Origin: Candidatus Magasanikbacteria bacterium RIFCSPHIGHO2_01_FULL_41_23
Lineage (GTDB): Bacteria > Patescibacteriota > Patescibacteriia > Magasanikbacterales > UBA922
NCBI GenBank assembly: GCA_001782805.1
Contig: MFPT01000003.1
Location: forward strand, 1-42,071
Length of the DNA: 42,071 nt
Direction: 5' to 3'
Both the position numbers and the translations under genes were made by a program. Shown here piece after piece: positions 1-27,937 of this stretch. The notes below the pieces were generated by a model that was not told where the DNA came from, did not search any database, and was given only the letters and a program-made list of their open reading frames with translations. Each line of letters starts with the position of its first letter. Position 1 is the stretch's first letter.

Positions 1-250
1 CGTCCAACAGTCGGCTAAGCAACATCCCGCAGTCTACCGACTACCGTCGGTATCCTACGGGACGATTGCCTAGCCGCCGCCCATTAGCTGAAATATTCCT
101 TTTCTTTTTTGGGCTATCGCCCAATTGTTTAAAAAAATCTGAAATTTCTTTTTCTTTATTTGATAGGGGGGCTGCCTGGCTATCGCCAGTCAGTAAGGTT
201 GTTTTCTCCGCTCCCTATGGTCGCTCCAAAAACGCTATTTATAAAAATCA
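1..250. repeat. Island repeat family, copy A (long form, may continue left of the window)
   Basis: Exact 31-nt match gaaatattccttttcttttttgggctatcgc at 90-120 with 6248-6278 (copy C). Further alignable blocks with copy B (tttctttatt, gttttctcc.ctcc, cc[ag]aaaac). Hairpin ttgggc-tatc-gcccaa at 109-124. Confidence 0.8.
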
Positions 251-288
251 GTAAACAGACTAAAATACAGCTAATTCAATATCGAAAT

Positions 289-1317
289 ATGCCTAAAACA
301 CTATTCAACAAAACCATTCAAGAGCTAGAATCAAACGCTATTTATTGGTGGCCGGATTTTCTGTCACAACTTGAGGAGAATGCCAGCATAATTCCCTTGC
401 TCATCAAAACGCAGGACAAATTTTTATCTCTCCTCGATCTTTCAGACAAAAATCCGTATAAGATTTTCGAACTGATCAAAAGCTCGGATTCCCCAGCTAA
501 CCTGTTTTTAAAGCATTTAGTGGTTTTAACAGACTTCGGAGGTGAACAAATTCAACGCCTAAACAAACAATTTTCATCAGTCTTTGAAAAGAAAAAAGGC
601 AAATTTTTCTTCACCTTTACCTGGAAAGAACAGTATTACGATTATTTTTTCAAAAAGCTGCCAATAACCGGAAACTTAGATAACAAAAAACTTGGTATAG
701 ACGGAAAAAATATTAATAACGAACAAGCTTTAGATGAGCTAAAGGAAGACTTAATATCAATCCTTCTATTTGGTGCAAATTCAATCAACGAAAAAACTGC
801 AAACAATCTGTCAAAATGCGAGATTGGTAATTTGCTAGGGCAAAAGGAAGCTTTAGAAAAATATGTGAAAGAAAAGTACATTTGGGTCAGCAGAATCACC
901 GGAGGGGCACAAGCTAACACACTCGGTCAGGTCGCCCAAACATATATTGTTGATTATTTGAAATCAAAACTTGATAAAAGCTTTTCGGTAAATCGTAATG
1001 GCTCAGTTAAAGTAGCAGGAAGTAAGAAAAGTATTCCTTTCGATATTGTCGTCAAAAAAGGTAATAAAACTGTTGGTGTTGAGGTGACTTTTCAGGTCAC
1101 GACTAACAGTACTATCGAACGAAAATCAGGACAGGCAAAAGCACGACGTGATTTGATGCATAAAGCTGGAAATTTCGTCGCGTATATTATTGACGGTGCG
1201 GGAAATTTTCAAAGGAAAAGTGCCATTTCAACAATATGCAACTACAGCGATTGTACAGTGGCTTATTCACAAAAAGAATTTGACACTTTGGTGAATTTTA
1301 TTAAAGAAAAACTATGA
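289..1317 (+). CDS. Putative type II restriction endonuclease (partner of the adjacent C5-MTase; family not recognised)
   Basis: Track ORF 160..1317 starts at TTG inside repeat copy A, so I trimmed it to the first ATG (289). Its stop overlaps the MTase start (ATGA at 1314-1317), typical R-M coupling. FDIVV..VGVEVTFQ could be a PD-(D/E)xK-like core, but this is weak. Confidence 0.5.
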   Translation: MPKTLFNKTIQELESNAIYWWPDFLSQLEENASIIPLLIKTQDKFLSLLDLSDKNPYKIFELIKSSDSPANLFLKHLVVLTDFGGEQIQRLNKQFSSVFEKKKGKFFFTFTWKEQYYDYFFKKLPITGNLDNKKLGIDGKNINNEQALDELKEDLISILLFGANSINEKTANNLSKCEIGNLLGQKEALEKYVKEKYIWVSRITGGAQANTLGQVAQTYIVDYLKSKLDKSFSVNRNGSVKVAGSKKSIPFDIVVKKGNKTVGVEVTFQVTTNSTIERKSGQAKARRDLMHKAGNFVAYIIDGAGNFQRKSAISTICNYSDCTVAYSQKEFDTLVNFIKEKL

Positions 1318-2681
1318 AATTAACATTTATTGACCTTTTCGCTGGCACTGGCGGAATAAGGATTGGATTCGAGAAAGCATGCCGCAAATTCGGTATTGAA
1401 ACCGAGTGCATTTTAAGTTCAGAAATTGATAAAAAAGCATGCGAAACCTATGAAATGAACTTTGGAGAAAAACCGCAGGGCGACATACGAAACATTAAAG
1501 AAATGAAACAATTTGACGTACTGCTTGGCGGCTTTCCTTGTCAACCATTTTCATATGCAGGCAAACAAAAAGGATTTGGCGATACAAGAGGCACGCTTTT
1601 TTTTGAAATTGAAAGAATTTTAAAAAACTATAAACCTAAATTTTTTCTATTAGAAAATGTTCGTGGATTAACTACTCACGACAATGGACGAACATTTGCC
1701 ACAATAATTCAAGCTTTGGAGAAATTGGGATATGGGGTCAATTATTTATTGCTCAATAGTTCAAATTTTGGCGTACCTCAAAATAGAGTAAGGGTCTATA
1801 TAGTTGGCCAGCTCAATGAAAAACCAATTTTAACCATAAATTCAGACCGTGGAGCGGCAGATAGCCACAAATTCAAAAATTTATTCTCACAAAAATCACT
1901 CTTTGGCCACAATGAATTTAAAGTTGTTGGAGATGTTTTAGACCAAGAAGTTGATAGTAAATATTTGTGCTCTAAAGATTTTATTACTAGGTTAAAAAAA
2001 GTGGCCGGCAGCGATTTTTCAAAGCTTAATGGTACTAGACTTATTGACTACAGAAACGGAGACTCTATTCATTCGTGGGAATTGGGAATTAAAGGTGAAT
2101 GTAGCAAAGATGAAATAGAGCTTATGAATCAGCTTGTTAAAAATCGCAGGAAAAAAATATTCGGAACACATCAAGACGGAAAACGCCTCACTTTAGAGCA
2201 AATTAAAACATTTGTTAAAATCCCAAAAATCGAGGCCGTCATAAAATCTTTAGAGGAAAAGGGCTATATCAAACAAGTAGATGGCAAATACAATCCTGTA
2301 GCCGGAAACATGTCGTTTGAGGTTTTTAAATTTCTTGACCCAAACAGTATCTCAATCACTCTTGTCTCAAGTGACGCGCATAAATTAGGTGTAGTGGTAA
2401 ACAATCAACCAAGAAGAATTACACCAAGAGAAGCGGCAAGAATCCAGGGTTTCCCTGAAAGTTTTAAAATACATCCTGATGATTCTGCCGCATATCATCA
2501 ATTCGGAAATGCAGTAGCCGTTCCAGTTATTCAGGCAGTGATAGAGAATTATTTAACAAACAATATATTTACAACGCCAACAAGGGAAAATTCAAAAATA
2601 CAAATTGAACAGCCAAAAAATAAAATCCCTCCGGGCTTTTCCCCGCAGCTTGCTGCGACTTCCTTAACGCATTGGGTATAA
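1314..2681 (+). CDS. DNA (cytosine-5)-methyltransferase
   Basis: C5-MTase motifs occur in canonical order: I FIDLFAGTGG, IV GFPCQPFS, VI LLENVRGL, VIII QNRVRVYIVG, IX TPREAARIQGFP, X GNAVAVPV. There is a long variable region between VIII and IX. The last ~14 codons run into the IS200-like left hairpin. Confidence 0.95.
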   Translation: MKLTFIDLFAGTGGIRIGFEKACRKFGIETECILSSEIDKKACETYEMNFGEKPQGDIRNIKEMKQFDVLLGGFPCQPFSYAGKQKGFGDTRGTLFFEIERILKNYKPKFFLLENVRGLTTHDNGRTFATIIQALEKLGYGVNYLLLNSSNFGVPQNRVRVYIVGQLNEKPILTINSDRGAADSHKFKNLFSQKSLFGHNEFKVVGDVLDQEVDSKYLCSKDFITRLKKVAGSDFSKLNGTRLIDYRNGDSIHSWELGIKGECSKDEIELMNQLVKNRRKKIFGTHQDGKRLTLEQIKTFVKIPKIEAVIKSLEEKGYIKQVDGKYNPVAGNMSFEVFKFLDPNSISITLVSSDAHKLGVVVNNQPRRITPREAARIQGFPESFKIHPDDSAAYHQFGNAVAVPVIQAVIENYLTNNIFTTPTRENSKIQIEQPKNKIPPGFSPQLAATSLTHWV

Positions 2682-3172
2682 GGTATACTGTGAACCATGA
2701 GCCAATTTATCCATAAATCACATAATGTCACCGTACTTCTCTATCATATCGTCTTTCCAGCGAAGTACAGACGAGCGGTATCGTCCGTGACCGTAGACAC
2801 CACCATAAAAGAAATATGTCTAGAAATAAGCAAGCGCTATGAAATAACTTTTTTAGAAATCGGCACAGACAAAGATCATATTCACTTTCTCATCCAATCA
2901 GTCCCCATGTACCCAGTAAAAAAGATTGTTCAAATCGTGAAGAGTATTACCGCAAAAGAAGTGTTCAAATCCTGCCCTGAAGTAAAACAACAGCTCTGGG
3001 GTGGAGAATTCTGGTCAGACGGCTACTACGCCAGTACCGTCGGACTCCACGGCAACGAACACACCATTCAAAACTATGTTAAAAACCAAGGAAAACCAAG
3101 AGAAGAATATCTGCAACTCCATACCCAGCAATTGGTATTGATTTAATACCTCGTCAGCTTGCTGCGAGGTGG
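2640..3172 (+). mobile_element. IS200/IS605-family insertion sequence (tnpA only)
   Basis: tnpA is flanked by related hairpins: cgcagc-tt-gctgcg at 2644-2657 and cctcgtcagc-tt-gctgcgagg at 3149-3169 (shared core cagcttgctgcga). This is expected for LE/RE structures of this family. Exact ends cannot be determined from one copy. Confidence 0.7.
2697..3146 (+). CDS. tnpA: IS200/IS605 family Y1 (HUH) transposase TnpA
   Basis: 149 aa, with HUH motif HIHFLIQ and C-terminal tyrosine region WSDGYYASTVG. Size and layout are typical of IS200 TnpA. Confidence 0.9.
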   Translation: MSQFIHKSHNVTVLLYHIVFPAKYRRAVSSVTVDTTIKEICLEISKRYEITFLEIGTDKDHIHFLIQSVPMYPVKKIVQIVKSITAKEVFKSCPEVKQQLWGGEFWSDGYYASTVGLHGNEHTIQNYVKNQGKPREEYLQLHTQQLVLI

Positions 3173-3192
3173 TTTATCGGTGTAATTTTTTT

Positions 3193-3432
3193 GAAAAAGT
3201 AAAAGTGTATATCGCCTAACACGGTATATGCGGTTCCGCTACGCTTCACCCATATTGCTCCCTGCGGTCGCAACATCGCATACACGGGGACGTTGGTCGA
3301 AATGTCGCTTTTCCTTTTAGGGCTAACGCCCTTGCTTTCACAAAATGGACAAAATTATTTTTTTTCTTTATTAATAGAGGGGAGTAATGGAGTTTTCTCC
3401 ACTCCGCTCCGAAAACAATTTTTAAAAAAAAT
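3193..3432. repeat. Island repeat family, copy B (long form)
   Basis: Aligns with copy C over about 95 nt (acgctt..cccatatt..gtcgcaacatc..ttggt[ct]gaaat..gggcta[at]cgc), with copy A over the downstream blocks, and with copy D over the 5' block (aaaaagt..tatatcgcctaaca..gatatgcg). Hairpin agggc-taac-gccct at 3319-3332. Confidence 0.8.
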
Positions 3433-3614
3433 ATGCCGGAAGGACCAAGAAATTATGAACCAACACCTTAGAGGGAACCGCAACCAAAAGTCAATCTGAC
3501 GGAAATCGCCTTACCTTTTTTTGGCGATTATGAAAAAAATCGATATATAGGTTTCTTATTCCAAGACAATCAGAAGCGGTTGATGTACAAATTATTTATG
3601 CGGATATAGGTCAG

Positions 3615-3995
3615 ATGTGGAGAGATGAATTGATTAAAAATAAAGTTTACTTGAGTACTTACCAAAACGATCCAAATCTACTTAAAGACGCTGAGATGCT
3701 AAACTTAGCAATTGAAGAAAGAAGAAAAATAATTTCAAAAGAGGGTAAATATGTAGGCATAAGAGGTATCCTAAATATTGCACACCTACTTTTATTTAGT
3801 GCCTTAACAAAAAAATCAATAAGTTCAGATCCAGATACCATCCTACTTATAGAGGTTACAAGCACTGGTGGAAATGACTGGGCAAAATTAGAGGACAAAT
3901 TAAACGATTACACACTGGGGTACCCTGAATTGCGTGGTAAATGGAAAAAGCTATATGCAGTATTTCCAGAAAAGAATATTCAACTTTTTAAGTAA
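3615..3995 (+). CDS. Hypothetical protein (126 aa), first ORF of the cassette after repeat B
   Basis: Uninterrupted ORF in the island orientation with no recognisable motif. There is no in-frame ATG upstream (stop at 3531). Confidence 0.4.
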   Translation: MWRDELIKNKVYLSTYQNDPNLLKDAEMLNLAIEERRKIISKEGKYVGIRGILNIAHLLLFSALTKKSISSDPDTILLIEVTSTGGNDWAKLEDKLNDYTLGYPELRGKWKKLYAVFPEKNIQLFK

Positions 3996-4027
3996 TGACT
4001 AATTTTAGCAAAATTCCATGTCTTCTC

Positions 4028-4056
4028 TTGACATCTAGTTTCAGTTATGATACAAT
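4028..4056 (+). promoter_or_regulatory. Sigma70-like promoter for the AbiE-like pair
   Basis: TTGACA (4028-4033), 17-nt spacer, TACAAT (4051-4056). The ATG at 4069 is only 12 nt after the -10, so the leader is very short. Confidence 0.55.
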
Positions 4057-4068
4057 ATCGTCATATAT

Positions 4069-4689
4069 ATGAAATATAGAGAAATACTGTTAGAACAACT
4101 CAAAAAACAGCCATACTTCACTAAAAAGGCCATACACCAGCTTAGTGAACAGTACGGCCTTAAAAGTACCACGGTTGACACTTATATCAGCCGATCTTTG
4201 AAACGCAAAGATATTATCCCCTTAAAAAGAGGTTTGTACGTGTCTACGGATTTTTATAATAAAAACAAAAATGATACATCCTACACTTTCTACCTTGCCA
4301 ACATTATTCGTACACCTTCTTTTATAAGCTCATGGACAGCACTCCAGTATTACGACCTAGTCACCGAAGCTATCCACACTATTACATCAATTACACCTAA
4401 AGTCACCCGATCTTATGAAACGAAAGCGGGTAACTTTGCATACCAGTCTATACAGAAAGAAATGTTTTCAAATTTTTCTTCCGTAAAAGGTAAATTTGAT
4501 TTCTTTATTGCCTCGCCCTCAAAAGCGCTTTTTGACTTGCTCTATTTTAAAACACGACAGTTTCGCGGTGTACATTTTGAGGATATTAAATCGCTCATTG
4601 AAGAATTACGCATTGATATTGATGAAATGAGTGAAGAGGAACAAAAAAAATTATTTTCTATGATTAAAAATTATTTACACTATGAATAA
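4069..4689 (+). CDS. AbiEi-like antitoxin / wHTH regulator (type IV TA)
   Basis: 206 aa. The N-terminal HTH-like region ends in the AbiEi-typical LKRGLYV. It overlaps the downstream AbiEii-like gene by 8 nt. Confidence 0.6.
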   Translation: MKYREILLEQLKKQPYFTKKAIHQLSEQYGLKSTTVDTYISRSLKRKDIIPLKRGLYVSTDFYNKNKNDTSYTFYLANIIRTPSFISSWTALQYYDLVTEAIHTITSITPKVTRSYETKAGNFAYQSIQKEMFSNFSSVKGKFDFFIASPSKALFDLLYFKTRQFRGVHFEDIKSLIEELRIDIDEMSEEEQKKLFSMIKNYLHYE

Positions 4690-5968
4690 TCAGATTCTCA
4701 CAGCTCTCAAAGAAAAATTTAAAGATCTTACTACTCATGGAGAACTGGAAGCTGAAACTCAGCGCAATATTCTCAAAGAAGAATTGCAGTTTTATATTTT
4801 AAATTTTATTTACCACCATCCGGAATACAGTAACTGGATTATGTATGGTGGTTCTGCACTCCGTATCTGTCATGGCCTTGATCGTATGTCTGTTGATTTG
4901 GATTTTGAAGTTGAACATTCTGTGTCAGAATCTTTTTTGAATGAATTGAAAAAAGAAATAGAAATGTACTTCAAAAATACTTACAACACTGAATCAGAAC
5001 TTCTAACTATTAAATCAACAACCAGTAGAGGGCTACGTTTATGCTTCCATATTGGTGATGAATTAGGTGTTAAACATCCTTCAAAGCAGGTAATTGTCAA
5101 AATTGATCTCAACCACTTTGTGGCTCCAAAAACAGTAATTGAACGCCGACCAATTAACCGTGATCAATTTTCATTTGTTATTAAGACATATAACATGTCC
5201 GCACTTATGGCGAGTAAAATTGCAGCAATTTTACTTCGTGGGCAACGCGGTGGTGTGGGCGGAGTGATGTATGAAGAAAAAGGACGTGACATTTATGATC
5301 TTCTTTGGTATATGACAAAAAAAGCTATACCAGACCTTGATTATTTAATTGCTAAAGACATCAACGTGAAAGATTTGCGTGTGCTTTTTGATAAACTTAC
5401 TTTACAAATGAATAAAGTAAATGATATAAATTTAAAACAGGATCTCTCACCTCTTTTTACAAACCAGACATTTATTGAAAACTGGCTTAAAAATTGGAGA
5501 ACAACTTACCTACGACTTTTTGAAGATTACAATATTCGCACGGTCGCCACATTGGAAAAAATTACCATTTCCCAAGACTTCCATACAGATAATTTTTCTT
5601 TTCTTTTTTGGTATTATACGGATAATGGAAAATTGTTAGGAGTCACCTACTCTATTAGTGATTATTGGATTGAATTTCGAGAAGGTGAACTATTAATAAC
5701 CCCTGATAAAAAAATTACAGATCTTGTCGAATTTAATAGTAACGGAATTAGTAGTAGGCCAGCACCACAAGATAAATTATTACAGTACGCTACTATCTTT
5801 TATCAAAAAACTGAAAACTATCTCAAAAAAATGAATCACACAGTATTTGGCGATACTATAAATACTAAAATTATCAGAATGACCGCAGATAATTTAAACC
5901 AAAAAGAACAAATCTTGCTCAACAAATCAACATTACTTTCTTGTGAATTAGATGACCTGTTAAAATAA
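4682..5968 (+). CDS. AbiEii/DUF1814-like nucleotidyltransferase toxin with long C-terminal extension
   Basis: YGGSALRICHGLDRMSVDLDFEV matches the GG(S/T)AL..R.S.DLDF signature of AbiEii NTases. At 428 aa it is clearly longer than the family core as I recall it. Confidence 0.7.
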   Translation: MNNQILTALKEKFKDLTTHGELEAETQRNILKEELQFYILNFIYHHPEYSNWIMYGGSALRICHGLDRMSVDLDFEVEHSVSESFLNELKKEIEMYFKNTYNTESELLTIKSTTSRGLRLCFHIGDELGVKHPSKQVIVKIDLNHFVAPKTVIERRPINRDQFSFVIKTYNMSALMASKIAAILLRGQRGGVGGVMYEEKGRDIYDLLWYMTKKAIPDLDYLIAKDINVKDLRVLFDKLTLQMNKVNDINLKQDLSPLFTNQTFIENWLKNWRTTYLRLFEDYNIRTVATLEKITISQDFHTDNFSFLFWYYTDNGKLLGVTYSISDYWIEFREGELLITPDKKITDLVEFNSNGISSRPAPQDKLLQYATIFYQKTENYLKKMNHTVFGDTINTKIIRMTADNLNQKEQILLNKSTLLSCELDDLLK

Positions 5969-5972
5969 TTGT

Positions 5973-6185
5973 TTGGCCAAGAGGCATTCACCCCTTAATC
6001 CCCTCTGCGCTTTTTGTTCAAAACGACAAAAAACAAAATCATTCTTGGATAAAAATGGCAAAATTTTTGCATGTGGCACCTGTCTAAAAAGCCGCGAATC
6101 TGAAGGCTCAGAAACTTGTCCTATGTCCACGATGAAAGATTTATATGAATTGGTAAAAGACAGCGATAAAGTTCTCTCATTTTAA
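5973..6185 (+). CDS. Possible small zinc-ribbon protein (70 aa, TTG start)
   Basis: CAFC..(17 aa)..CGTC cysteine pairs. It starts 4 nt after the AbiEii-like stop. There is no ATG start and its 3' end abuts repeat copy C, so support is weak. Confidence 0.25.
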   Translation: MAKRHSPLNPLCAFCSKRQKTKSFLDKNGKIFACGTCLKSRESEGSETCPMSTMKDLYELVKDSDKVLSF

Positions 6186-6285
6186 CGCTTAGTTTCGCCC
6201 ATATTACTCCTTTCAGTCGCAACATCAGATATACGCGGACATTGGTTGAAATATTCCTTTTCTTTTTTGGGCTATCGCTTAACAC
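6185..6285. repeat. Island repeat family, copy C (short form)
   Basis: Contains the exact 31-mer shared with copy A (6248-6278) and aligns with copy B over about 95 nt. The hairpin equivalent is degenerate here (ttgggc-tatc-gcttaa). Confidence 0.8.
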
Positions 6286-6320
6286 TTTTCCATAATGAAT
6301 AAATTTTAATTTTTCAATTT

Positions 6321-6755
6321 ATGAAGACGATTTACGTTTTTATGTCTGAAATGGACAATTCAACGACGATCTGCAATCCACTTTCTGAACTTAAAAGGTT
6401 ATTGGCCGTCCTGCCAAAATCATGTCCCATTTATGTCATGGGAGGGTTTGCCTTAGACGGCCATTTGGGAAAATTAACGCGCAAACATAATGACGTTGAT
6501 TTGATTTGCTGGCGCAAAGACGTAAATATTATCAAAAAAGTTTTAGAGCGGATTGGCTACAAAGTTAGGGAAAAATACGACAAGAATAATCCCAAACTAC
6601 CAATATTATTAGAAACAGACGAGGAGAATCCTGCTATGGATGTAAAAATTATCGATGAACAGCCGAATAACAGCTTTACATTTCATTTCAACACTCCTGG
6701 TCAGCAAATTTTTTCCAAAAAAATGCTCGGCTCAAGTCAAGTTTCACTCGATTGA
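6321..6755 (+). CDS. ANT(2'')-like (pol-beta superfamily) nucleotidyltransferase, short form
   Basis: MGGFALDGHLGKLTRKHNDVDLICW closely parallels the GGGWAIDARLGRVTRKHDDIDL active-site segment of ANT(2'')-Ia as I recall it. At 144 aa it may be 3'-truncated. Confidence 0.6.
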   Translation: MKTIYVFMSEMDNSTTICNPLSELKRLLAVLPKSCPIYVMGGFALDGHLGKLTRKHNDVDLICWRKDVNIIKKVLERIGYKVREKYDKNNPKLPILLETDEENPAMDVKIIDEQPNNSFTFHFNTPGQQIFSKKMLGSSQVSLD

Positions 6756-6778
6756 TAAATTATTGCGACTAAAAAAGA

Positions 6779-7798
6779 TTGAACGCATTGGATTGGGAAG
6801 AACGACAAGATACAAAAAAAATTGACCGAAAACGATTTGGTTGGAAGCAGTTCATCCCTAATAAGGTATCGCTATTTCTTGAAATTTTTTGTAATGTATT
6901 TGGGGTTACTTTTTCCAACAATTTACTAATTAACCAACTAATTCATATGAGCACAAACACTATGGAAAATATCATCAAAGAGGGTTTAACACCAATCGGT
7001 GTACAAGAAAACGGAGAAACTTTTGGCCTTTCTCCAGAAGAGCGTCCTGGAATTTTGCATTTATTTGGACGTTTCGGCCATGGTAAAAGCGTCACTCTTG
7101 AAGACATTGTAATTTCAGACATCCACAATGGCCGAGGTGGCATGCTGATTGATCCTTACGGGGATCTTATCAAAGATATTCAATCTTACATTCCAGCGGA
7201 CAAAGCTAACAAAGTTGCAATCTTTGAAGCACAGGCCGAAAAGCTTGATGAAAACATCACAAAATTCCGAAAAGAAATCCACTTTGAGGAAATGAAAAAG
7301 GATAGCCAAAAGTTTCTCCTTTGCAAGTTGGACTACCGCAGTTTGGGTACAGGCGTAGCAAGAGAACTCGGTCTATATTTAGTGAAGCAGTTTTTGCAAA
7401 TCGTTGGTGGCGAGAATCGTTCGCTCGGACTCGACGAAGCACATAACTTCATAGACGAAGAAGTGTTGGAACAAATCGTACAAAGTAAAGAAAGTGGCTT
7501 GTCCTGTATTTTGTCAGACCAAACATCTATGCATTACCGCACAGATATTCTTGAACGCACACTTGAAGCCGCGAATCACGTACTTTGCTATTTCGTTGAT
7601 AGCGCAACAGCCAATCTGATCAATAAGTATCACTCAGAAATGAGTCCGAGCGAACTCACATCACTTGAAAAGTACAACTTTATGGCAAAAGTGAATGCAA
7701 AAACTGCTTCACCAGCCGTCTTGAAGTTAAAAGGAGTTTTCCCGATTCCCTACCCCAATAAAGGAATCGTCAAAAAAATCATATTCCTTCACACCTAA
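6779..7798 (+). CDS. P-loop ATPase, TraD/VirD4/HerA-like
   Basis: Walker A GRFGHGKS, then IDPYGDL, Walker B LGLDEAHNF, then ILSDQTS. The track start is TTG 6779 (hydrophobic N-terminal segment); the first ATG is 6948. Confidence 0.55.
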   Translation: MNALDWEERQDTKKIDRKRFGWKQFIPNKVSLFLEIFCNVFGVTFSNNLLINQLIHMSTNTMENIIKEGLTPIGVQENGETFGLSPEERPGILHLFGRFGHGKSVTLEDIVISDIHNGRGGMLIDPYGDLIKDIQSYIPADKANKVAIFEAQAEKLDENITKFRKEIHFEEMKKDSQKFLLCKLDYRSLGTGVARELGLYLVKQFLQIVGGENRSLGLDEAHNFIDEEVLEQIVQSKESGLSCILSDQTSMHYRTDILERTLEAANHVLCYFVDSATANLINKYHSEMSPSELTSLEKYNFMAKVNAKTASPAVLKLKGVFPIPYPNKGIVKKIIFLHT

Positions 7799-7895
7799 TT
7801 TAGTAAACAGATTCTCAAACCCCATATTTTAGCCAAAATAATGCCACCTGACATTACTATATCAGTACAATGATACAGATATTGAATTATATTAT

Positions 7896-7967
7896 AACCG
7901 TGAAATTAGTCACTTTTTTACAGTTTTTCACGGTTATCTTGACAAAACAGTGAAAATAATGTATAAT
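7896..7967 (+). promoter_or_regulatory. Consensus promoter with upstream inverted repeat (candidate operator) for the Fic gene
   Basis: TTGACA (7939-7944), 17 nt, TATAAT (7962-7967). A perfect 10-nt inverted repeat aaccgtgaaa (7896-7905) / tttcacggtt (7926-7935) abuts the -35. Confidence 0.6.
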
Positions 7968-7996
7968 GGAGTTAATATTCACTACTAATAACAAAT

Positions 7997-8890
7997 ATGC
8001 CAAAAAAATTACATATTTTCAACACAATATCGCAGTTAAGAGAACGATTCTATACCTCGGCTGTTGTAAAACAGGCGCTTTTAAAGCTAATCAGCGAAGC
8101 AGAAGTGGCCGAACAAGTATACAACTCTAACGCGATTGAAAACAGTACACTCACTCTTGAGGAAACCGAAAAAATACTTTTGCAAATAGATTTGGATCGA
8201 TATATTACGGAGCGAGAAATGTTTGAAGCCAAAAATTTGGCGCGAGTTGTGTCGTATATTGATCAAAGAGCCAAAGAACGAGAGCTCTCCCTAGAGGTGA
8301 TTTTATCACTTCACAAAATGTTGATTTCCAATATTCGCGATGATATCGCTGGCAGATTTAGAAAAAATAATGAATTTGTACGCGTTGGCAGTCACATTGC
8401 TCCCAATCCCAACGAAGTGGTGGGTCGCACGGAAAAAATGTTATCCGAATACAACGCCACCAGCCACGAAAATATTATTAAAAGAATAGCAAAATTGCAT
8501 CTGGCTTTTGAATATATCCATCCATTTTGCGATGGTAATGGCCGTATTGGTCGGGTTATCAATAATTATTTGCTAATACGAGAAGGATTTGTCCCAATAA
8601 ACATAAAATTTATCGACCGAAACAAATACTACGAAGCGTTTAAAGAATTTGACGAAAAAGACGCGACGGCAATTATGGAAGAAATAGTAGGTAAAGCACT
8701 TACCAATAGTTACCACAAACGACTTGCCTATTTGGAGGGTGCCAATATTATTACACTCGCTGAATACGGAAAAATAAATAAAATATCACACTCTAATTTG
8801 ATTAATAAAGCCAGTCGACAGACAATAGAGGCCTTTTTGGAAAAAGGTGTGTGGAAAATAGGTGCCGTGCAAAAACATCAAGGTGATTAA
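7997..8890 (+). CDS. Fic family protein (AMPylase-type), class II with internal inhibitory helix
   Basis: HPFCDGNGRIGR matches the Fic motif HxFx(D/E)GNGRxxR. N-terminal SNAIEN fits the inhibitory (S/T)xxxE(G/N) motif. The C-terminal segment looks HTH-like. Confidence 0.9.
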   Translation: MPKKLHIFNTISQLRERFYTSAVVKQALLKLISEAEVAEQVYNSNAIENSTLTLEETEKILLQIDLDRYITEREMFEAKNLARVVSYIDQRAKERELSLEVILSLHKMLISNIRDDIAGRFRKNNEFVRVGSHIAPNPNEVVGRTEKMLSEYNATSHENIIKRIAKLHLAFEYIHPFCDGNGRIGRVINNYLLIREGFVPINIKFIDRNKYYEAFKEFDEKDATAIMEEIVGKALTNSYHKRLAYLEGANIITLAEYGKINKISHSNLINKASRQTIEAFLEKGVWKIGAVQKHQGD

Positions 8891-8927
8891 CGAATTCGCC
8901 CCCACTGATTGAATGACGAGCAAAAAA

Positions 8928-8990
8928 ACAAAAAGTTTAAAAATTTTATATCGCCTAACAGCCGATATGCGATTACGCTAACCGATATTT
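8928..8990. repeat. Island repeat family, copy D (5' module only)
   Basis: aaaaagt..tatatcgcctaacagccgatatgcgattacgcta aligns with 3194-3245 of copy B. Hairpin atatcg (8948-8953) / cgatat (8963-8968). Confidence 0.6.
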
Positions 8991-8991
8991 T

Positions 8992-9270
8992 ATGACAGAA
9001 AAAGAAATTGCTACAGGCGTAGTTCATAAAGTACCGGCTGATTTAAATGAGATATTAATTTCAAATCCCGACGTACTTGAAAAATGGAACAGCCTTACAT
9101 CTCTCGCACGTAACGAGTGGATATGTTGGGTAACTATTGTCAAGAAACCAGAAACAAGAAAAGAACATTTAGTTCGTTTACGTGCAGATCTTTTGAATGG
9201 GAAACGCAGACCCTGTTGTTGGCCAGGCTGTCATCATCGTAGACCAAGTGCAAAAAAGTGGTTTAAATAA
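8992..9270 (+). CDS. YdeI/OmpD-associated family protein
   Basis: NEWICWVTIVKKPETRKEHLVRL resembles the conserved core of the YdeI/OmdA domain. Confidence 0.55.
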   Translation: MTEKEIATGVVHKVPADLNEILISNPDVLEKWNSLTSLARNEWICWVTIVKKPETRKEHLVRLRADLLNGKRRPCCWPGCHHRRPSAKKWFK

Positions 9271-9309
9271 GTAAAACATTCACTTCATTTCAGAGTTATT
9301 TGAGCATTG

Positions 9310-9765
9310 TTACACCAAATCCCGCTGATCAAATTCTTTTTCGCAATAATGGCATTGAAAAAATATTTTTTTGCCAGCTCGTTTGGGTGTAAATTTAGTT
9401 TTAATGATTTCGTGATTAGTAATGCATTTAGGATTGGGACAATGCGCCACTGTGGTGAGGAGCCCGGGAATTTCCACGGGAAATTTTTTACTTATCTCGC
9501 CGTTACGAATAATATTAATACTGGCTTCGGGTGCGATTAAATAGACTTGATTAATTTCGTCCGGTGTCAATTCGCGATTTTCAATTTTTATAATATCTTT
9601 ACGCCCCAGCTTTTTACTGGGCATATTGGCGCCCATAGTGACAATGGAGTCTGAATTTAAAAGACGCAACAAGGTAATGAGGCGCACGGCTTGTCCTCCC
9701 GGGACATGATCAATCACCGTGCCATTGGCAATTTTAAATACGCGATATATTTTTGTGGTAGGCAT
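9310..9765 (-). CDS. pyrI: Aspartate carbamoyltransferase regulatory subunit
   Basis: NGTVIDHVP and KDIIKIENREL segments, plus a C-terminal zinc cluster CPNPKCIT..CHYCE. Lies directly downstream of pyrB. Confidence 0.85.
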   Translation of the reverse strand: MPTTKIYRVFKIANGTVIDHVPGGQAVRLITLLRLLNSDSIVTMGANMPSKKLGRKDIIKIENRELTPDEINQVYLIAPEASINIIRNGEISKKFPVEIPGLLTTVAHCPNPKCITNHEIIKTKFTPKRAGKKIFFQCHYCEKEFDQRDLV

Positions 9766-24542: not shown

Positions 24543-27500
24543 CTACACATCCAAATTCTGGACATTTTTAGCGTGCGTTTGGATGAATTTTTTGCGCGGA
24601 GCAACTTCGCTGCCCATAAGAATATCAAAAATTTCATTGGCGCGTTCCGCGTCTTCAATTGTGACTTGTTTGATGACGCGATTGGCCGGATTCATCGTGG
24701 TTTCCCATAGTTGCTCCGGATTCATTTCTCCCAAACCTTTATAGCGTTGAATGGCAAAACCAGAGGATTTTTTGTTTTCCGTCACTTTTGTTTCCGAACT
24801 CGCGATTTCGTCGGTTTCTTCTTCTGCCACTTGAATATCTTCGGCTTTCAGATTATTTTTTTGCAAAAATTTATCTAAAGCTTCGGCATCATAGAGCCAA
24901 GTTGTTTCTTTGCCTTTTTTGGCGCTGTACAACGGTGGTTGAGCAATAAAAATATGTCCTTGATAAATCAGATCTGGGAAATAACGGAAAAATAATGTTA
25001 AAAGTAGAGTACGAATATGCGCGCCGTCAACATCCGCATCAGTCATAATGACAATGCGATTGTAACGTAGTTTGGTAATGTCAAACATTTCGCCAATGTT
25101 CGTGCCCATTGCAATAATAAGGGATTTTAATTCATTGTTCGTCAGAATTTTATCCAAACGCGCGCGTTCCACATTTAAAACTTTTCCGCGCAAAGGAAGA
25201 ATGGCTTGGATATTACGGTCGCGGCCTTGCTTGGCACTATTATGGACAAAAATACCACTCGCGAGCGCGAAATTATGGGTGTTTGGAATTTCAATATCGT
25301 ATACAGGAATTTTTTGTGATATTTTTTTAATTGCAATAATTCGGTGATTGTATAATTTTACGGCTTCAGTTAATCGGTTTGCGTCATCGGCGAAAAATCG
25401 TTTACGAAGTGTTTCCAATTTTAAATAATTTTTGTTTTGACGGATATTACGTCGGGTCATATCGTAGTTTTGTATCGTGCCCTCTTTTTTATACACATCA
25501 GACAATAATTTCATTGATGTGGCGTAATACACTTGGTCATATGCGGCTTTACGTTTTTGACGGAATTCAGGAGTCCACTGAGCATGGGTTTCGTGCGCAC
25601 GCCAGATTCGTAAATTTTCATTATTCCATTGCGCCTTAGCTTTATGGCGCAATACTTCTTTTTGTTCAGGATGATTTTCAAAGAATTTTTTTACACGACC
25701 AGCCTGTGTAATTCTATGATTCGTATCCGCCCAATAGATTATTTGTTGTTGATTTAGCAACTCATTATTTTTTTGACGATAACCGGCATTTGAATTATAA
25801 AAATTCAAAAAAATATCTCCCATTTGTTTTTTATAAACCGGGTTGGCCCACTGTCCTTTGGCTCGAGCGCTTAATAGTGGAGACATTTTTTTCATGGTTC
25901 GGCTAATTTTCGCGCGATATTCAGAAGTTCTTTTTAAAATATTTAATTTGGCAATCACATCGGGACGGTGTAATGTTTTTTTGATGTGTGTTCGATGAAT
26001 GGTCAAATGTTCTTCAGAAGAAATCAAACGAACATTATCCGGATTGTTGTTACGTTTATTGAAATCAACATGATGACGATGGCCTTTTTCAATTTTTTTA
26101 TACGCATTATGCTGTAGGTTGTAAGCATCGGACAATAGATGGGTGAAAATCCAGCGATTATCTTTTGGATCAAATACTAATTCATAGCCTTCAATCGTGA
26201 TTCGTTTTCCTTTTCGAGAAATTTGGCGGTATAAGGGCATTAATGAATCTTTGTTAGTTAATTCGGCGACAACTTTGTATGAACCATCACGTGTCATAAA
26301 ACGATGGTCAGGTGTACAGATTATTTTTTCATCAGAATCAAGCGTAATTTCTGTTACCTCAGCTTTGGCCTTGGTTTGACGTGGGGAAAGAATTTTTTCA
26401 ATCCCAATGCGGCCATCTTCAAGAATAGTGTAGCAATAATTTTGTTTGCCTAGTTTTTCTTCTTCAATCAGTTCCAAAAAAGATAAACTGCGGCCATCAG
26501 CCAAAGCAACTTTAGTATCACCAGAAAAACAGCCTCCGGCACTATCGCCTTCCACAATGAATAATTCAGAAATACTGGCGTCGCGGCTGGAGCAATCAGC
26601 CAATTTTCCCGGCAAAGTAAATCCTTCCAACGCACTTTTGCGCAAGACCGTATCGCGTGCCATTTTGGCGGCGGCGCGAGCGCGGGCCGCGATAATACAT
26701 TTGGCGAGAATTGCTTCGGCATCCTTGGGATGTTCTTCCAAAAAAATCGCAAAGTGATCACCAAAAACTTGTTCTACGGCCGGTTTAACTTCGGGATTAC
26801 CTAGTTTGGCTTTGGTTTGGCCTTCAAATTGTGGATTGGGAATTTTAACGGAAATAATCGCGGTTAAGCCTTCGCGCACGTCTTCTCCGGTCAAACTCGC
26901 GTCTTTTTCTTTTAAAATACTTTTGTTGCGGGCGTAATTATTTATGGTTCTGGTTAAAGCCAGACGAAAGCCGGCCACGTGCATGCCGCCATCCGGATTC
27001 GCGATATTATTGGCGAACGCAAAAAGCGATTCATTATAATCGTCTGTGTATTGTAGGGCGATTTCCACCAACACATCATCCACTTTTTTTTCAATATAAA
27101 AAACCGTTTCATTTTTAATTTCCCGATTTTTATTAATGTGTTTGGTGTAGCTGGCAATGCCTCCTTCAAAATAAAATTGATAGGTGGTATTGAAAGGAAG
27201 TGCGGAAACATCTTTCTTTTTTTCCTCGGCACTGCGTTCATCATGTAAAATAAGATGAATGCCTTTGGTTAAATAGGCTTGTTGACGAACATGGTCAATA
27301 ATGTATTTCCAATCAAAATCAAGCGTTTCAAAAATTGACGCGTCCGGATGAAACATGATCGTGGTGCCGGTAGTTTTACTGTTGCCAATTGCTTTGACTT
27401 TTCCTTGCGGTTTGCCTATTTTATAATTTTGTTCCCAGATTTTGCCATCGCGATGAATAATCGCTTTTAAATCCGTGGAAAGCGCGTTTACCACTGATGC

Positions 27501-27896
27501 TCCCACGCCGTGCAAACCACCGGATACCTTATATCCGCTGGCATCGCCGCCAAATTTACCGCCGGCGTGGAGAGTGGTGAGAACCAAATCCAAAGCACTG
27601 ACTTTTTTGAGAGGATGAATGTCAACCGGAATACCACGGCCATTATCACTGACCGAAACCCAGTGATCAGGCAACAACTTTACCGTGATGGTATCGCAGT
27701 GGCCGGCCATGGATTCGTCCATGGAATTGTCCACAATTTCCCAAATCATGTGATGCAAACCAGTCGCGCCGGTAGAACCGATATACATGCCCGGACGTTT
27801 GCGCACTGCTTCCAATCCTTCAAGAACAGTTATATTTTTCGCGCTGTAATCTTTTTGGTTCGACGAGCTCACCATAAATTTTTCTTCTTTAGTCAT
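24543..27896 (-). CDS. gyrB: DNA gyrase subunit B, interrupted by an intein
   Basis: GHKL motifs LEGLEAVRKRPGMYIGST, EIVDNSMDE, DNGRGIP, GGLHGVGASVVNALS. The Toprim EGDSAGG / SAKQGRDR is split by the intein. C-terminal QRYKGLGEMNPEQLWETTM. The start is uncertain (ATG 27896 or 27875). Confidence 0.95.
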   Translation of the reverse strand: MTKEEKFMVSSSNQKDYSAKNITVLEGLEAVRKRPGMYIGSTGATGLHHMIWEIVDNSMDESMAGHCDTITVKLLPDHWVSVSDNGRGIPVDIHPLKKVSALDLVLTTLHAGGKFGGDASGYKVSGGLHGVGASVVNALSTDLKAIIHRDGKIWEQNYKIGKPQGKVKAIGNSKTTGTTIMFHPDASIFETLDFDWKYIIDHVRQQAYLTKGIHLILHDERSAEEKKKDVSALPFNTTYQFYFEGGIASYTKHINKNREIKNETVFYIEKKVDDVLVEIALQYTDDYNESLFAFANNIANPDGGMHVAGFRLALTRTINNYARNKSILKEKDASLTGEDVREGLTAIISVKIPNPQFEGQTKAKLGNPEVKPAVEQVFGDHFAIFLEEHPKDAEAILAKCIIAARARAAAKMARDTVLRKSALEGFTLPGKLADCSSRDASISELFIVEGDSAGGCFSGDTKVALADGRSLSFLELIEEEKLGKQNYCYTILEDGRIGIEKILSPRQTKAKAEVTEITLDSDEKIICTPDHRFMTRDGSYKVVAELTNKDSLMPLYRQISRKGKRITIEGYELVFDPKDNRWIFTHLLSDAYNLQHNAYKKIEKGHRHHVDFNKRNNNPDNVRLISSEEHLTIHRTHIKKTLHRPDVIAKLNILKRTSEYRAKISRTMKKMSPLLSARAKGQWANPVYKKQMGDIFLNFYNSNAGYRQKNNELLNQQQIIYWADTNHRITQAGRVKKFFENHPEQKEVLRHKAKAQWNNENLRIWRAHETHAQWTPEFRQKRKAAYDQVYYATSMKLLSDVYKKEGTIQNYDMTRRNIRQNKNYLKLETLRKRFFADDANRLTEAVKLYNHRIIAIKKISQKIPVYDIEIPNTHNFALASGIFVHNSAKQGRDRNIQAILPLRGKVLNVERARLDKILTNNELKSLIIAMGTNIGEMFDITKLRYNRIVIMTDADVDGAHIRTLLLTLFFRYFPDLIYQGHIFIAQPPLYSAKKGKETTWLYDAEALDKFLQKNNLKAEDIQVAEEETDEIASSETKVTENKKSSGFAIQRYKGLGEMNPEQLWETTMNPANRVIKQVTIEDAERANEIFDILMGSEVAPRKKFIQTHAKNVQNLDV
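25239..26531 (-). mobile_element. GyrB intein (431 codons) carrying an HNH-type endonuclease module
   Basis: Starts at Cys (CFSGDTKVAL) right after EGDSAGG. Block B is CTPDH. HNH segment GHRHHVDFNKRNNNPDNVRLISSEEHLTIH. The C-terminal block VYDIEIPNTHNF..GIFVHN is followed by a +1 Ser of SAKQGRDR. 1293 nt, in frame. Confidence 0.9.
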
Positions 27897-27937
27897 AAAT
27901 TTTTGAATAGTACAGGCACAGCGTATCATATTTGAAG

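Follow-up and report, generated by a model that had tools for sequence, protein, structure and literature searches.

Sedentary chromosomal integrons and attC clusters that have no integron integrase (CALINs), for example the Vibrio superintegron with its Vibrio cholerae repeats (VCR), are characterised by a divergently oriented tyrosine recombinase gene beside an attI site with direct repeats and by a co-oriented array of promoter-poor gene cassettes. Their attC sites are imperfect hairpins of about 50–200 nt with R boxes resembling RYYYAAC/GTTRRRY and covarying L boxes; the attCs are alike within a family, and crossover at G|TT is reflected in the rule R'(n)=R''(n+1) for neighbouring sites n and n+1. 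The cargo is rich in restriction-modification (R-M), toxin-antitoxin (TA) and other defence genes. Here we describe a system sharing these features, starting from 42,071 nt of Candidatus Magasanikbacteria bacterium RIFCSPHIGHO2_01_FULL_41_23 (contig MFPT01000003.1; the whole stretch is called the window below), a member of the Candidate Phyla Radiation (CPR; Patescibacteria). An earlier sequence-only reading had described four related intergenic repeats in it, copies A to D, as an unassigned modular family. Positions 1–9300 very probably belong to a chromosomal gene-cassette array of the integron type, of which they form the distal part and in which each repeat copy is a cassette junction.

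The CPR system differs from the sedentary integrons in its recombinase, which is without the IntI insertion and XerA-like in length and colinearity, and in its attC sites, which show no evident canonical extrahelical bases and carry the conserved internal boxes GGTTC and CACCCA[TA]ATT and the apical loop TCCGCTACGCTAC. It also has a leader of about 165 nt and terminal inverted repeats (TIRs) of about 75–100 nt outside the R boxes. To our knowledge, described integrons have no leader or such TIRs. Promoter-bearing integron cassettes (TA cassettes, and ORF-less cassettes with promoters or small RNAs in Vibrio and Xanthomonas) are comparable in their cassette-borne expression signals and their independence from the integron promoter Pc. 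Their signals are cassette-specific, whereas in the present system one module of about 165 nt is found, in many phyla, before genes of at least 80 families that are unrelated to one another.

Archaeal integrons were found in metagenome-assembled genomes (MAGs) of uncultured lineages including DPANN, mostly as CALINs with few detectable IntIs, with an attI semi-conserved across phyla and an enrichment of the cassettes for TA and R-M functions (Ghaly et al. 2022, PMC9668308). Unlike the CPR recombinase, these IntIs are reported with an additional domain; neither a leader nor a terminal inverted repeat is described there, and the CPR is not mentioned. Xer-like recombinases of candidate phyla were grouped as 'Cand', with no link to cassettes (Smyshlyaev et al. 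2021, PMC8138268). With these and with Xer/dif the present system has in common a short 'simple' Xer-like tyrosine recombinase and gene modules bounded by recombinase sites. Its sites are hairpins of 50–200 nt with compensatory variation, in contrast to the 28-nt double-stranded dif, and its co-oriented modules have their boundaries at G|TT. On Acinetobacter plasmids, the pdif modules depend on XerC/D. Literature searches on CPR integrons, on Xer-like cassette arrays and on the sequences themselves returned no prior description. An integron array is a known kind of system; its CPR form, with a recombinase lacking the IntI insertion, the internal attC boxes and a leader/TIR chassis across phyla, appears to be undescribed in the literature searched.

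The window comes from the chromosome of an AT-rich bacterium with a small genome and contains the genes of L1, L11, NusG and RF1, an intein-containing gyrB, pyrBI, gatB and thyA/folA. Positions 1–9300 are unlike the rest: all genes are accessory and on the + strand (in order, BanI R-M, IS200 transposase, an unknown open reading frame (ORF), AbiEi/AbiEii, nucleotidyltransferase, an AAA-like ORF, Fic and OmdA), and the repeats lie in the gaps between them. A repeat search of the window gave 83 nt around a 31-mer common to A, B and C (repeat D1; 82–164, 3291–3373 and 6240–6322; identity 63–72 %), 93 nt shared by B and C (D2; 3237–3329 and 6186–6278; 78 %), 41 nt shared by B and D (D5; 3201–3241 and 8940–8980; 80 %) and two downstream blocks shared by A and B (D6, 195–214 and 3386–3405; D8, 145–160 and 3357–3372). 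The 31-mer is identical at 90–120 and 6248–6278, and copy B (3299–3329) deviates from it at 6 positions; a degenerate pattern covering all three had 3 matches in the window and none in 100 shuffles. Leader and attC profiles were built from other genomes only and run against the 42-kb window. They recovered exactly the four noted copies and nothing further: the leader profile matched at 84–254, 3292–3432 and 6243–6313 (E-values in Table 1), and the attC profile at 3194–3303 (E 4.8e-14, full length including the TIR), 6194–6252 (E 3.5e-5, profile positions 68–132 only) and, weakly, 8952–8985 (E 0.055). Thus the four copies, the exact 31-mer of A and C and the modular relations given by the sequence-only reading (about 95 nt between B and C, further downstream blocks between A and B, and D matching only the 5' module of B) were all borne out. 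A tRNA/tmRNA search of the window found none.

At each junction the attC of the upstream cassette is made up of the left modules, namely a remnant of the right inverted repeat (TIR-R), R'', L'', the conserved CACCCATATT box, an apical stem-loop, L' and R'. To their right, from the TT of G|TTRGYY onwards, follows the conserved non-coding leader that forms the 5' end of the next cassette. The earlier view of a structure-bearing modular element tied to the downstream cassette was correct. Its statement that the element could not be matched to attC has to be revised, because the 5' modules are attC-type hairpins: the boxes of copy B are complete, and homologous sites show integron cassette signatures at the level of the array.

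Across loci the attC-like sites consist of [TA]A[CT]ATC, R'' (NNNYAAC), 1 nt, an 11-nt L'', GGTTC..., CACCCA[TA]ATT, an apical stem with the loop TCCGCTACGCTAC, A[CA][AT]TC, L', 3–5 nt, R' (GTTRGYY) and GAAAT. We scanned 638 kb for AAC followed after 1–2 nt by an 11-mer pairing at 10/11 or more with an 11-mer 3–5 nt before GTT, the two 40–200 nt apart. The scan found 101 sites in the orientation of the leader against 4 in the opposite one, and 10 on both strands of shuffled loci. The sites were 53–199 nt long (median 103) and contained 65 distinct L'' 11-mers, each with a matching L', which is compensatory variation on a large scale. R''/R' and L''/L' formed imperfect inverted repeats whose structure was kept over sequence across the loci. 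The L stems were usually perfect over 11 bp, the R–L spacers asymmetric (1 nt against 3–5 nt; 1/4 in 75 of the 101 sites), and the '' arm carried a bulge of 20–40 nt. About one third of the attC-like sites in loci selected for the leader were followed by a conserved leader. When neighbours were compared, all 4 variable bases of R' after site n were complementary to R'' of site n+1 in 14 of 31 pairs; such agreement occurred in 6 % of comparisons inside a single site and in 10 % when pairs were drawn at random. This agreement places the crossover at G|TT and makes the cassette the mobile unit.

Three kinds of hairpin have the motif TC(C)GCT(N)CGCT(N)C as their loop, namely the attC apex (e.g. 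L031, ~2680–2710), hairpin 2 of the leader and the R'–R'' hairpin of ORF-less cassettes (L001, 8003–8013); L numbers designate the fetched loci. The tips of attC sites are normally variable, and a conserved apical loop is unusual.

The leader pattern was scanned with one genome per species. The 31-mer pattern occurred in 98 genome stretches, nearly all from the CPR (Magasanik-, Falkow-, Peregrini-/Peri-, Moran-, Uhr-, Kerfeld-, Kuenen-, Komeili-, Campbell-, Nomura-, Andersen-, Berkel-, Gracili- and Saccharibacteria). None of 2.9 million viral contigs matched the leader, and thus there was no sign of a phage origin. Some leaders were found in MAGs with other labels, comprising Gammaproteobacteria (L007, L012, L027, L038, L047, L059, L063, L071, L076), Altarchaeum (L016), Methanoregula (L048), DPANN (L057, L094) and L008, L024, L052 and L084. 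Many of these contigs were short. Either mis-binning or mis-labelling, or real sharing of cassettes across phyla or domains, could explain them.

In the alignment the leader extends for about 165 nt from G|TTAGCT and is near-invariant over its first ~95 nt. It always starts exactly at the G|TT crossover, and what lies upstream varies: either a hairpin site or an attI-like AT-rich spacer beside a divergent recombinase gene. The divergence (63–78 % identity) and partial truncation of the window copies might suggest that the repeats are a decaying, functionless duplicated spacer, the outcome that the sequence-only reading had named as its refutation. This is contradicted by the family as a whole, which is often more than 95 % conserved across about 100 species of many CPR phyla and shows compensatory changes, so that we give the spacer practically no credence.

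A forward ORF with an ATG start was found behind 85 of 102 leaders, at a median of 164 nt from the leader start. The 83 cargo ORFs tested matched 80 Pfam families, with R-M dominant (N6_Mtase, N6_N4_Mtase, Eco57I, EcoRI methylase, HaeIII, EcoRV, GmrSD and ResIII leading; also Fic, AbiEii-like, LexA-like and DsrE).

Between its conserved start and the cargo, the canonical leader contains hairpin 1 followed by TTGTTTT, which was the sole terminator-like site found in it, and phased A/T tracts downstream of hairpin 1. The hairpin sequences quoted by the sequence-only reading are present (ttgggc-tatc-gcccaa at 109–124 in A, tagggc-taac-gccct at 3319–3332 in B), but the compensatory T:A/A:T change that it proposed for the outer pair did not hold, as this pair is U:A in 66 of 82 homologous leaders, A:U in one, copy B itself, and unpaired in 15. 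The GGGC/GCCC stem was invariant in all 82. Hairpin 2, (U)GUUUUC-N13-GAAAAC(G), changes on both sides at three of its four inner pairs (variants GUUUCC/GGAAAC and GUCUUC/GAAGAC, and an 11-bp form with a different loop) and is also kept in a variant with 7 additional nt. Its double-change cells numbered 14 against 2.7 in shuffles, and none of 500 shuffles was as high. The covariation that had been proposed as a check on further copies thus exists for hairpin 2 and not for hairpin 1, whose stem never varies. Of 79 leaders, 64 had a TAnnAT box no further than 60 nt from the ATG (control, 24 of 79), and TACAAT/TATAAT boxes clustered at +139 to +150, 15–25 nt before the ATG. From these signals we infer that the inner leader would act as an insulated expression module for the cargo.

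The covariation of hairpin 2, the alternative pairing GAGGGGA:UUUUCUC that excludes it, the U-rich tract after it and the fixed distance to the ATG would also fit a leader that is primarily a cis-acting structured RNA, an attenuator- or riboswitch-like 5' untranslated region controlling the cargo, with the attC neighbourhood incidental. As an explanation of the whole leader this is unlikely. Its fold energy was not better than that of shuffles, most of it is invariant and thus shows no covariation, and neither the inverted copy of its first ~75–100 nt at the cassette 3' end nor its unfailing start at G|TT would be explained. A long-range polypyrimidine/polypurine pairing was not present in all leader copies. 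Rfam at the gathering threshold gave no match in the window and only tRNAs in 12 canonical loci. In E-value mode the best sub-threshold match of the canonical leader was idnO with 17.8 bits against a threshold of 100 (E 2.7). The structured-RNA reading could be right for the inner third of the leader, alongside the integron explanation.

A coding function had also been considered by the sequence-only reading, in the form of a hydrophobic peptide of about 60 aa with a TTG start encoded by the conserved blocks. The ORFs on which this was based, 66..254 (TTG...TAA) and 3293..3499 (TTG...TGA), exist and are open in the same frame through the shared blocks. The homologous leaders gave no support to the coding reading, so that the doubt already voiced about a purely coding element was well placed. 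In about 80 % of 102 leaders the frame from TTAGCT stops at 31 codons or fewer (modes 19 and 30), in copy C it stops after 17 codons, and near-identical copies differ by +1 or −1 nt in an A-run (L018, L035, L061, L074, L101; L039, L045, L052). No start codon is conserved, because the upstream sequence is variable attC. An alternative GTG-initiated frame of 19 aa does not survive in GGAG variants, and the hairpin variant with +7 nt shifts it; moreover, at cassette 3' ends the sequence is likewise conserved, but inverted. A small-protein gene was rejected on the early stops, the ±1-nt indels and the +7-nt variant; the peptide is extremely improbable, and it is by chance that A and B, two diverged copies, share a frame.

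The leader cassettes end with R'' AGCTAAC, the complement of TTAGCT, and an attC of about 100 nt of uniform sequence; the ~110 nt before R'' are also conserved. For 34 cassettes, both ends lay in a single locus; in these the initial ~73 nt of the leader, reverse-complemented, correspond to the ~73 nt preceding R''. The inverted arms aligned with scores of 48–94 in all but one cassette (35), against 12–30 for shuffles, and a weaker similarity continued beyond ~73 nt up to ~100 nt. A small hairpin occupies the corresponding position in both arms, but its stem differs: GGGC-TATC-GCCC in one, CCGAC-TATC-GTCGG or GTTTTC-TTATCA-GAAAAC in the other. Two loci (L092, L098) contained the chassis without cargo. 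By their sequence, the leader cassettes share a common chassis made of TTAGCT, leader, cargo, inverted leader, AGCTAAC, attC core and G.

Small GC hairpins with a TATC loop and unrelated stems (GGGC-TATC-GCCC, CTGGC-TATC-GCCAG, CCGAC-TATC-GTCGG) recur, at 111–122 and 176–189 of the window, at ~275–288 of L092 and in many 3' arms. They may represent a protein-binding motif.

Long terminal inverted repeats around cargo, together with an IS200-family transposase beside copy B, are what would be expected if the repeats were ends or relics of a transposable element (a miniature inverted-repeat transposable element, a foldback element, or hairpin ends of the IS200/IS605 or repetitive extragenic palindrome (REP)/REP-associated tyrosine transposase (RAYT) type) mobilised by the Y1 transposase at 2697–3146. 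We regard this as very improbable. The insertion sequence (IS) has different hairpin ends of its own (2643–2657, 3149–3169), on which identity with IS200/IS605 ends or REP-RAYT was rejected, and it is absent from nearly all other leader loci. Y1_Tnp is not among the 25 leading Pfam families listed for the first ORF behind the leader (83 ORFs), the window's own array aside; the other genes of those loci were left unscanned. Target-site duplications were not seen, the junctions are always at the G|TT of attC or attI, and R'(n)=R''(n+1), the co-orientation (101 against 4) and an adjacent tyrosine recombinase are features of cassettes rather than of transposons.

The window and its contig both begin inside the attC of an ORF-less cassette, called E here, and the recombinase gene lies beyond the window, in two (L001, L002) of the assemblies of the same array (L001–L006). 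The BanI protein is encoded on 24 public contigs; among the six matches listed, four start as the window does and two extend further left. In the latter (L001, L002) a minus-strand gene for a tyrosine recombinase (Phage_integrase; 270/272 aa) is divergently oriented ~80–190 nt left of window position 1. Its best NCBIfam match was NF040815 'XerA / integron integrase' (224 bits, cut-off 220), and it is colinear with Pyrococcus abyssi XerA (4A8E), its best solved relative. A homologous integrase of ~270 aa (40–61 % identity) was found in 26 of the 104 fetched loci, in about 16 of them divergent and 80–150 nt from the leader. The AT-rich region between recombinase and array in L001 and L002 contains the direct repeat AGTT[TC]G[CT]ATA twice, and the copy nearer the array adjoins G|TTGGTC. 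Intergenic regions of this kind are 85–150 nt long and carry AGTT[TC]G[CT]ATAA as a pair of direct repeats, of which the second lies directly against G|TTAGCT or G|TTGGTC. By its place beside the recombinase gene and its insertion point at G|TT, this region is a predicted attI. In a single locus (L016, 906–1700 and 1855) the recombinase was observed on the strand of the leader instead of divergent.

The array heads of L001 and L002 differ by whole units. L002 has one unit E and then the BanI cassette, whereas in L001 the BanI cassette is preceded by two E units that enclose, in this order, a peptidase-S51 cassette, a short ORF-less unit and a PNPOx cassette; the first cassette is different, L001 has five extra units, and each difference is bounded at G|TT. 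The opening hexamer of the inserted L001 units is complementary to the box of their own terminal hairpin (TTATGTG...ACATAAC, TTAAGTG...ACTTAAC); they are thus built as integron cassettes are. The complete attC-E is visible at 9640–9790 of L001 and 8310–8470 of L002 (AACCAATGGGCGGCGG...CCGCCGCCCATTAGCT).

The recombinases of L001 (7098–7910) and L002 (7353–8171) are just 52 % identical, although the array is the same, and the left flank has SUF/NifU genes in L001 and pyr genes in L002. This points either to an exchange of the platform or to a chimeric contig, joined at cassette E, which is repeated. The remaining four, independent assemblies (L003–L006) break inside attC-E at the start point of the window, and this common breakpoint suggests strain heterogeneity or repeat collapse at the array head.

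Several findings weigh against the integron interpretation. The recombinase scored 208 bits against the TIGR02249 integron integrase (cut-off 265), in two stretches, and its alignment with V. cholerae IntI4 (2A3V) falls into two blocks with IntI4 residues 182–241 unmatched (query 178–194), that is, without the IntI-specific insertion. Canonical extrahelical bases were not evident in the attC-like sites. A strict sigma-70 scan of the canonical leader gave no promoter, the RNA fold of the whole leader was not better than shuffles (z −0.23; both strands folded), and reverse-oriented genes stand behind the leaders of L017, L026 and L094, a poor fit to a pure promoter role. Within the window, the strict attC scan gave chance level only, the attCs are imperfect (L''/L' pairing of 9/11 in B, half sites in C and D), and R' and R'' of the three cassettes do not match, e.g. 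TTAGCT...GCCTAAC. Activity of the window's own array is doubtful. The system would be integron-like in working, yet lacks one defining feature of the family, the IntI insertion.

The recombinase would excise and insert cassettes as in integrons, acting on a folded single-stranded attC and exchanging strands at G|TT. The inverted leader arms would extend the attC stem by ~75–100 bp in an excised circle or between adjacent leader cassettes, and this longer stem would favour hairpin or cruciform formation. In the inner part of the leader, the terminator-like hairpin 1 with TTGTTTT and the phased A/T tracts, together with hairpin 2, which covaries, and a TAYAAT resembling a −10 box, would lead to expression of the cargo, each leader cassette being an insulated transcription unit. 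Tentatively, and with rather less than even confidence, we propose that the CPR and possibly their DPANN neighbours have a distinct integron lineage with a short Xer/XerA-like recombinase devoid of the IntI insertion, in which a large pool of defence genes circulates on a standard chassis (~165-nt promoter-bearing leader, ~75–100-nt TIRs, ~100-nt attC) and the empty chassis of L092 and L098 is the loading vehicle. In that case standard tools would classify such arrays as CALINs, without an integrase.

Where cassettes come from and how an attC joins a gene are open questions in integron biology. With at least 80 unrelated genes between the same conserved ends, and with empty units, a model in which a gene is loaded into a ready-made cassette becomes testable. 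If true, the proposal would offer a concrete, testable route by which integron cassettes originate, a problem long without a solution. Gene capture of the integron type appears to be at work in many CPR phyla, with a recombinase that falls outside the usual IntI criterion, and surveys that require IntI probably miss a share of the integrons of CPR and DPANN genomes. That the leader is nearly identical in different phyla suggests that these ultra-small episymbiotic bacteria draw on an active common pool of R-M and other defence cassettes. For the window itself, the practical result is that four unassigned repeats can be annotated as junctions of a partly decayed array (Table 1).

Table 1. Features of the cassette array in the window. 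HMM, hidden Markov model built from other genomes.
Feature	Position	Strand	Description
attC-E, 3' part	1..89	+	Site of ORF-less cassette E; internal palindrome 12–76; R' ATTAGCT 83–89
Leader A, 5' end of cassette 1	84..254	+	Leader HMM E 3.3e-30
Cassette 1 cargo	289..2681	+	BanI-type endonuclease 289–1317 (RE_BanI 1.5e-140); C5 DNA methyltransferase 1314–2681 (DNA_methylase 8e-102)
IS200/IS605-family insertion in cassette 1	2640..3180	+	Y1 transposase 2697–3146 (Pfam Y1_Tnp 3e-35); outside the repeat family
Copy B, 5' module	3193..3298	+	Diverged 3' inverted repeat of cassette 1, 3193–3213 (GAAAAAGTAAAAGTGTATATC), then complete attC-B (3214–3298)
attC-B boxes			R'' GCCTAAC 3214–3220; L'' 3222–3232; CACCCATATT 3247–3256; L' 3277–3287; R' GTTGGTC 3292–3298
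Leader B, 5' end of cassette 2	3293..3432	+	Most diverged copy; leader HMM E 1.2e-20; hairpin 1 3319–3332, hairpin 2 ~3390–3417
Cassette 2 cargo	3615..5968	+	Unknown ORF 3615–3995; AbiEi-like/AbiEii pair 4069–4689, 4682–5968 (Pfam AbiEii 4e-21)
Inner part of 3' inverted repeat (TIR-R)	5971..6032	+	Cut by deletion; TIR-R HMM E 4.6e-7
DsrE-like cassette gene, 3' fragment	6051..6185	+	Last 44 codons; left by the same deletion that cut the TIR-R at 5971–6032
Copy C, 5' module	6194..6247	+	attC 3' half: CGCCCATATT, apical stem, L', R' ATTGGTT 6241–6247; R''/L'' half absent
Leader C, 5' end of cassette 3	6242..6313	+	Truncated after hairpin 1 (31-mer 6248–6278); leader HMM positions 3–73, E 1.1e-10
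Cargo behind leader C	6321..8890	+	Nucleotidyltransferase 6321–6755, AAA-like ORF 6947–7798, Fic 7997–8890 (Pfam)
Copy D	8925..8985	+	Diverged 3' inverted repeat, then attC 5' fragment: R'' GCCTAAC 8953–8959, L'' 8961–8971; no L'/R'

The array of the window is old, rearranged and partly fossilised, as seen from the IS200 insertion, the half-site attCs of C and D, a cassette-fusing deletion and the non-matching R'/R''. Folded as single-stranded DNA, the bottom strand of the attC-E 3' part gave −26.7 kcal/mol (z −6.6), and copy A was the only strong palindrome; folding of copies B, C and D was not significant, which is consistent with decay. Leader A has, in order, TTAGCT, GAAAT, polypyrimidine tract, hairpin 1 (GGGC-TATC-GCCC, 111–122), A/T-tract region, an extra hairpin (TATC loop, 176–189), hairpin 2 and A/T-rich end, and the TIR-R profile, made from 3' arms of other genomes, matched it on the minus strand from 170 to 84 (E 1.9e-10). 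In cassette 1 the IS, which is flanked at either end by hairpins of the GCAGCTTGCTGC type, separates the methylase gene from the 3' inverted arm and lies just upstream of the latter. The fragment at 6051–6185 is 70 % identical to the C-terminus of a DsrE-family cargo protein (by Pfam) behind the leader in L018. Copy C aligns with B over repeat D2, and copy D is fused to the start of the last array gene, OmdA/YdeI (8992–9270), after which the array ends at pyrI.

A few observations were made on individual genes. As annotated, the methylase ORF (to 2681) extends with its 3' end into the IS end. The AbiE pair and the Fic gene each have a sigma-70-like promoter of their own inside the cassette (TTGACA...TACAAT at ~4029–4058 and TTGACA-17-TATAAT at 7950–7978, respectively). 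Only the N-terminal part of its Pfam models was matched by the nucleotidyltransferase ORF (144 aa), which is followed by an ORF in an overlapping frame with a TTG start (6779–7798), and the region 6321–6947 may contain a frameshifted or fused gene. Outside the array, gyrB (24543–27929, minus strand) encodes 1128 aa, with an intein splicing domain (residues ~483–897) ahead of the Toprim domain.

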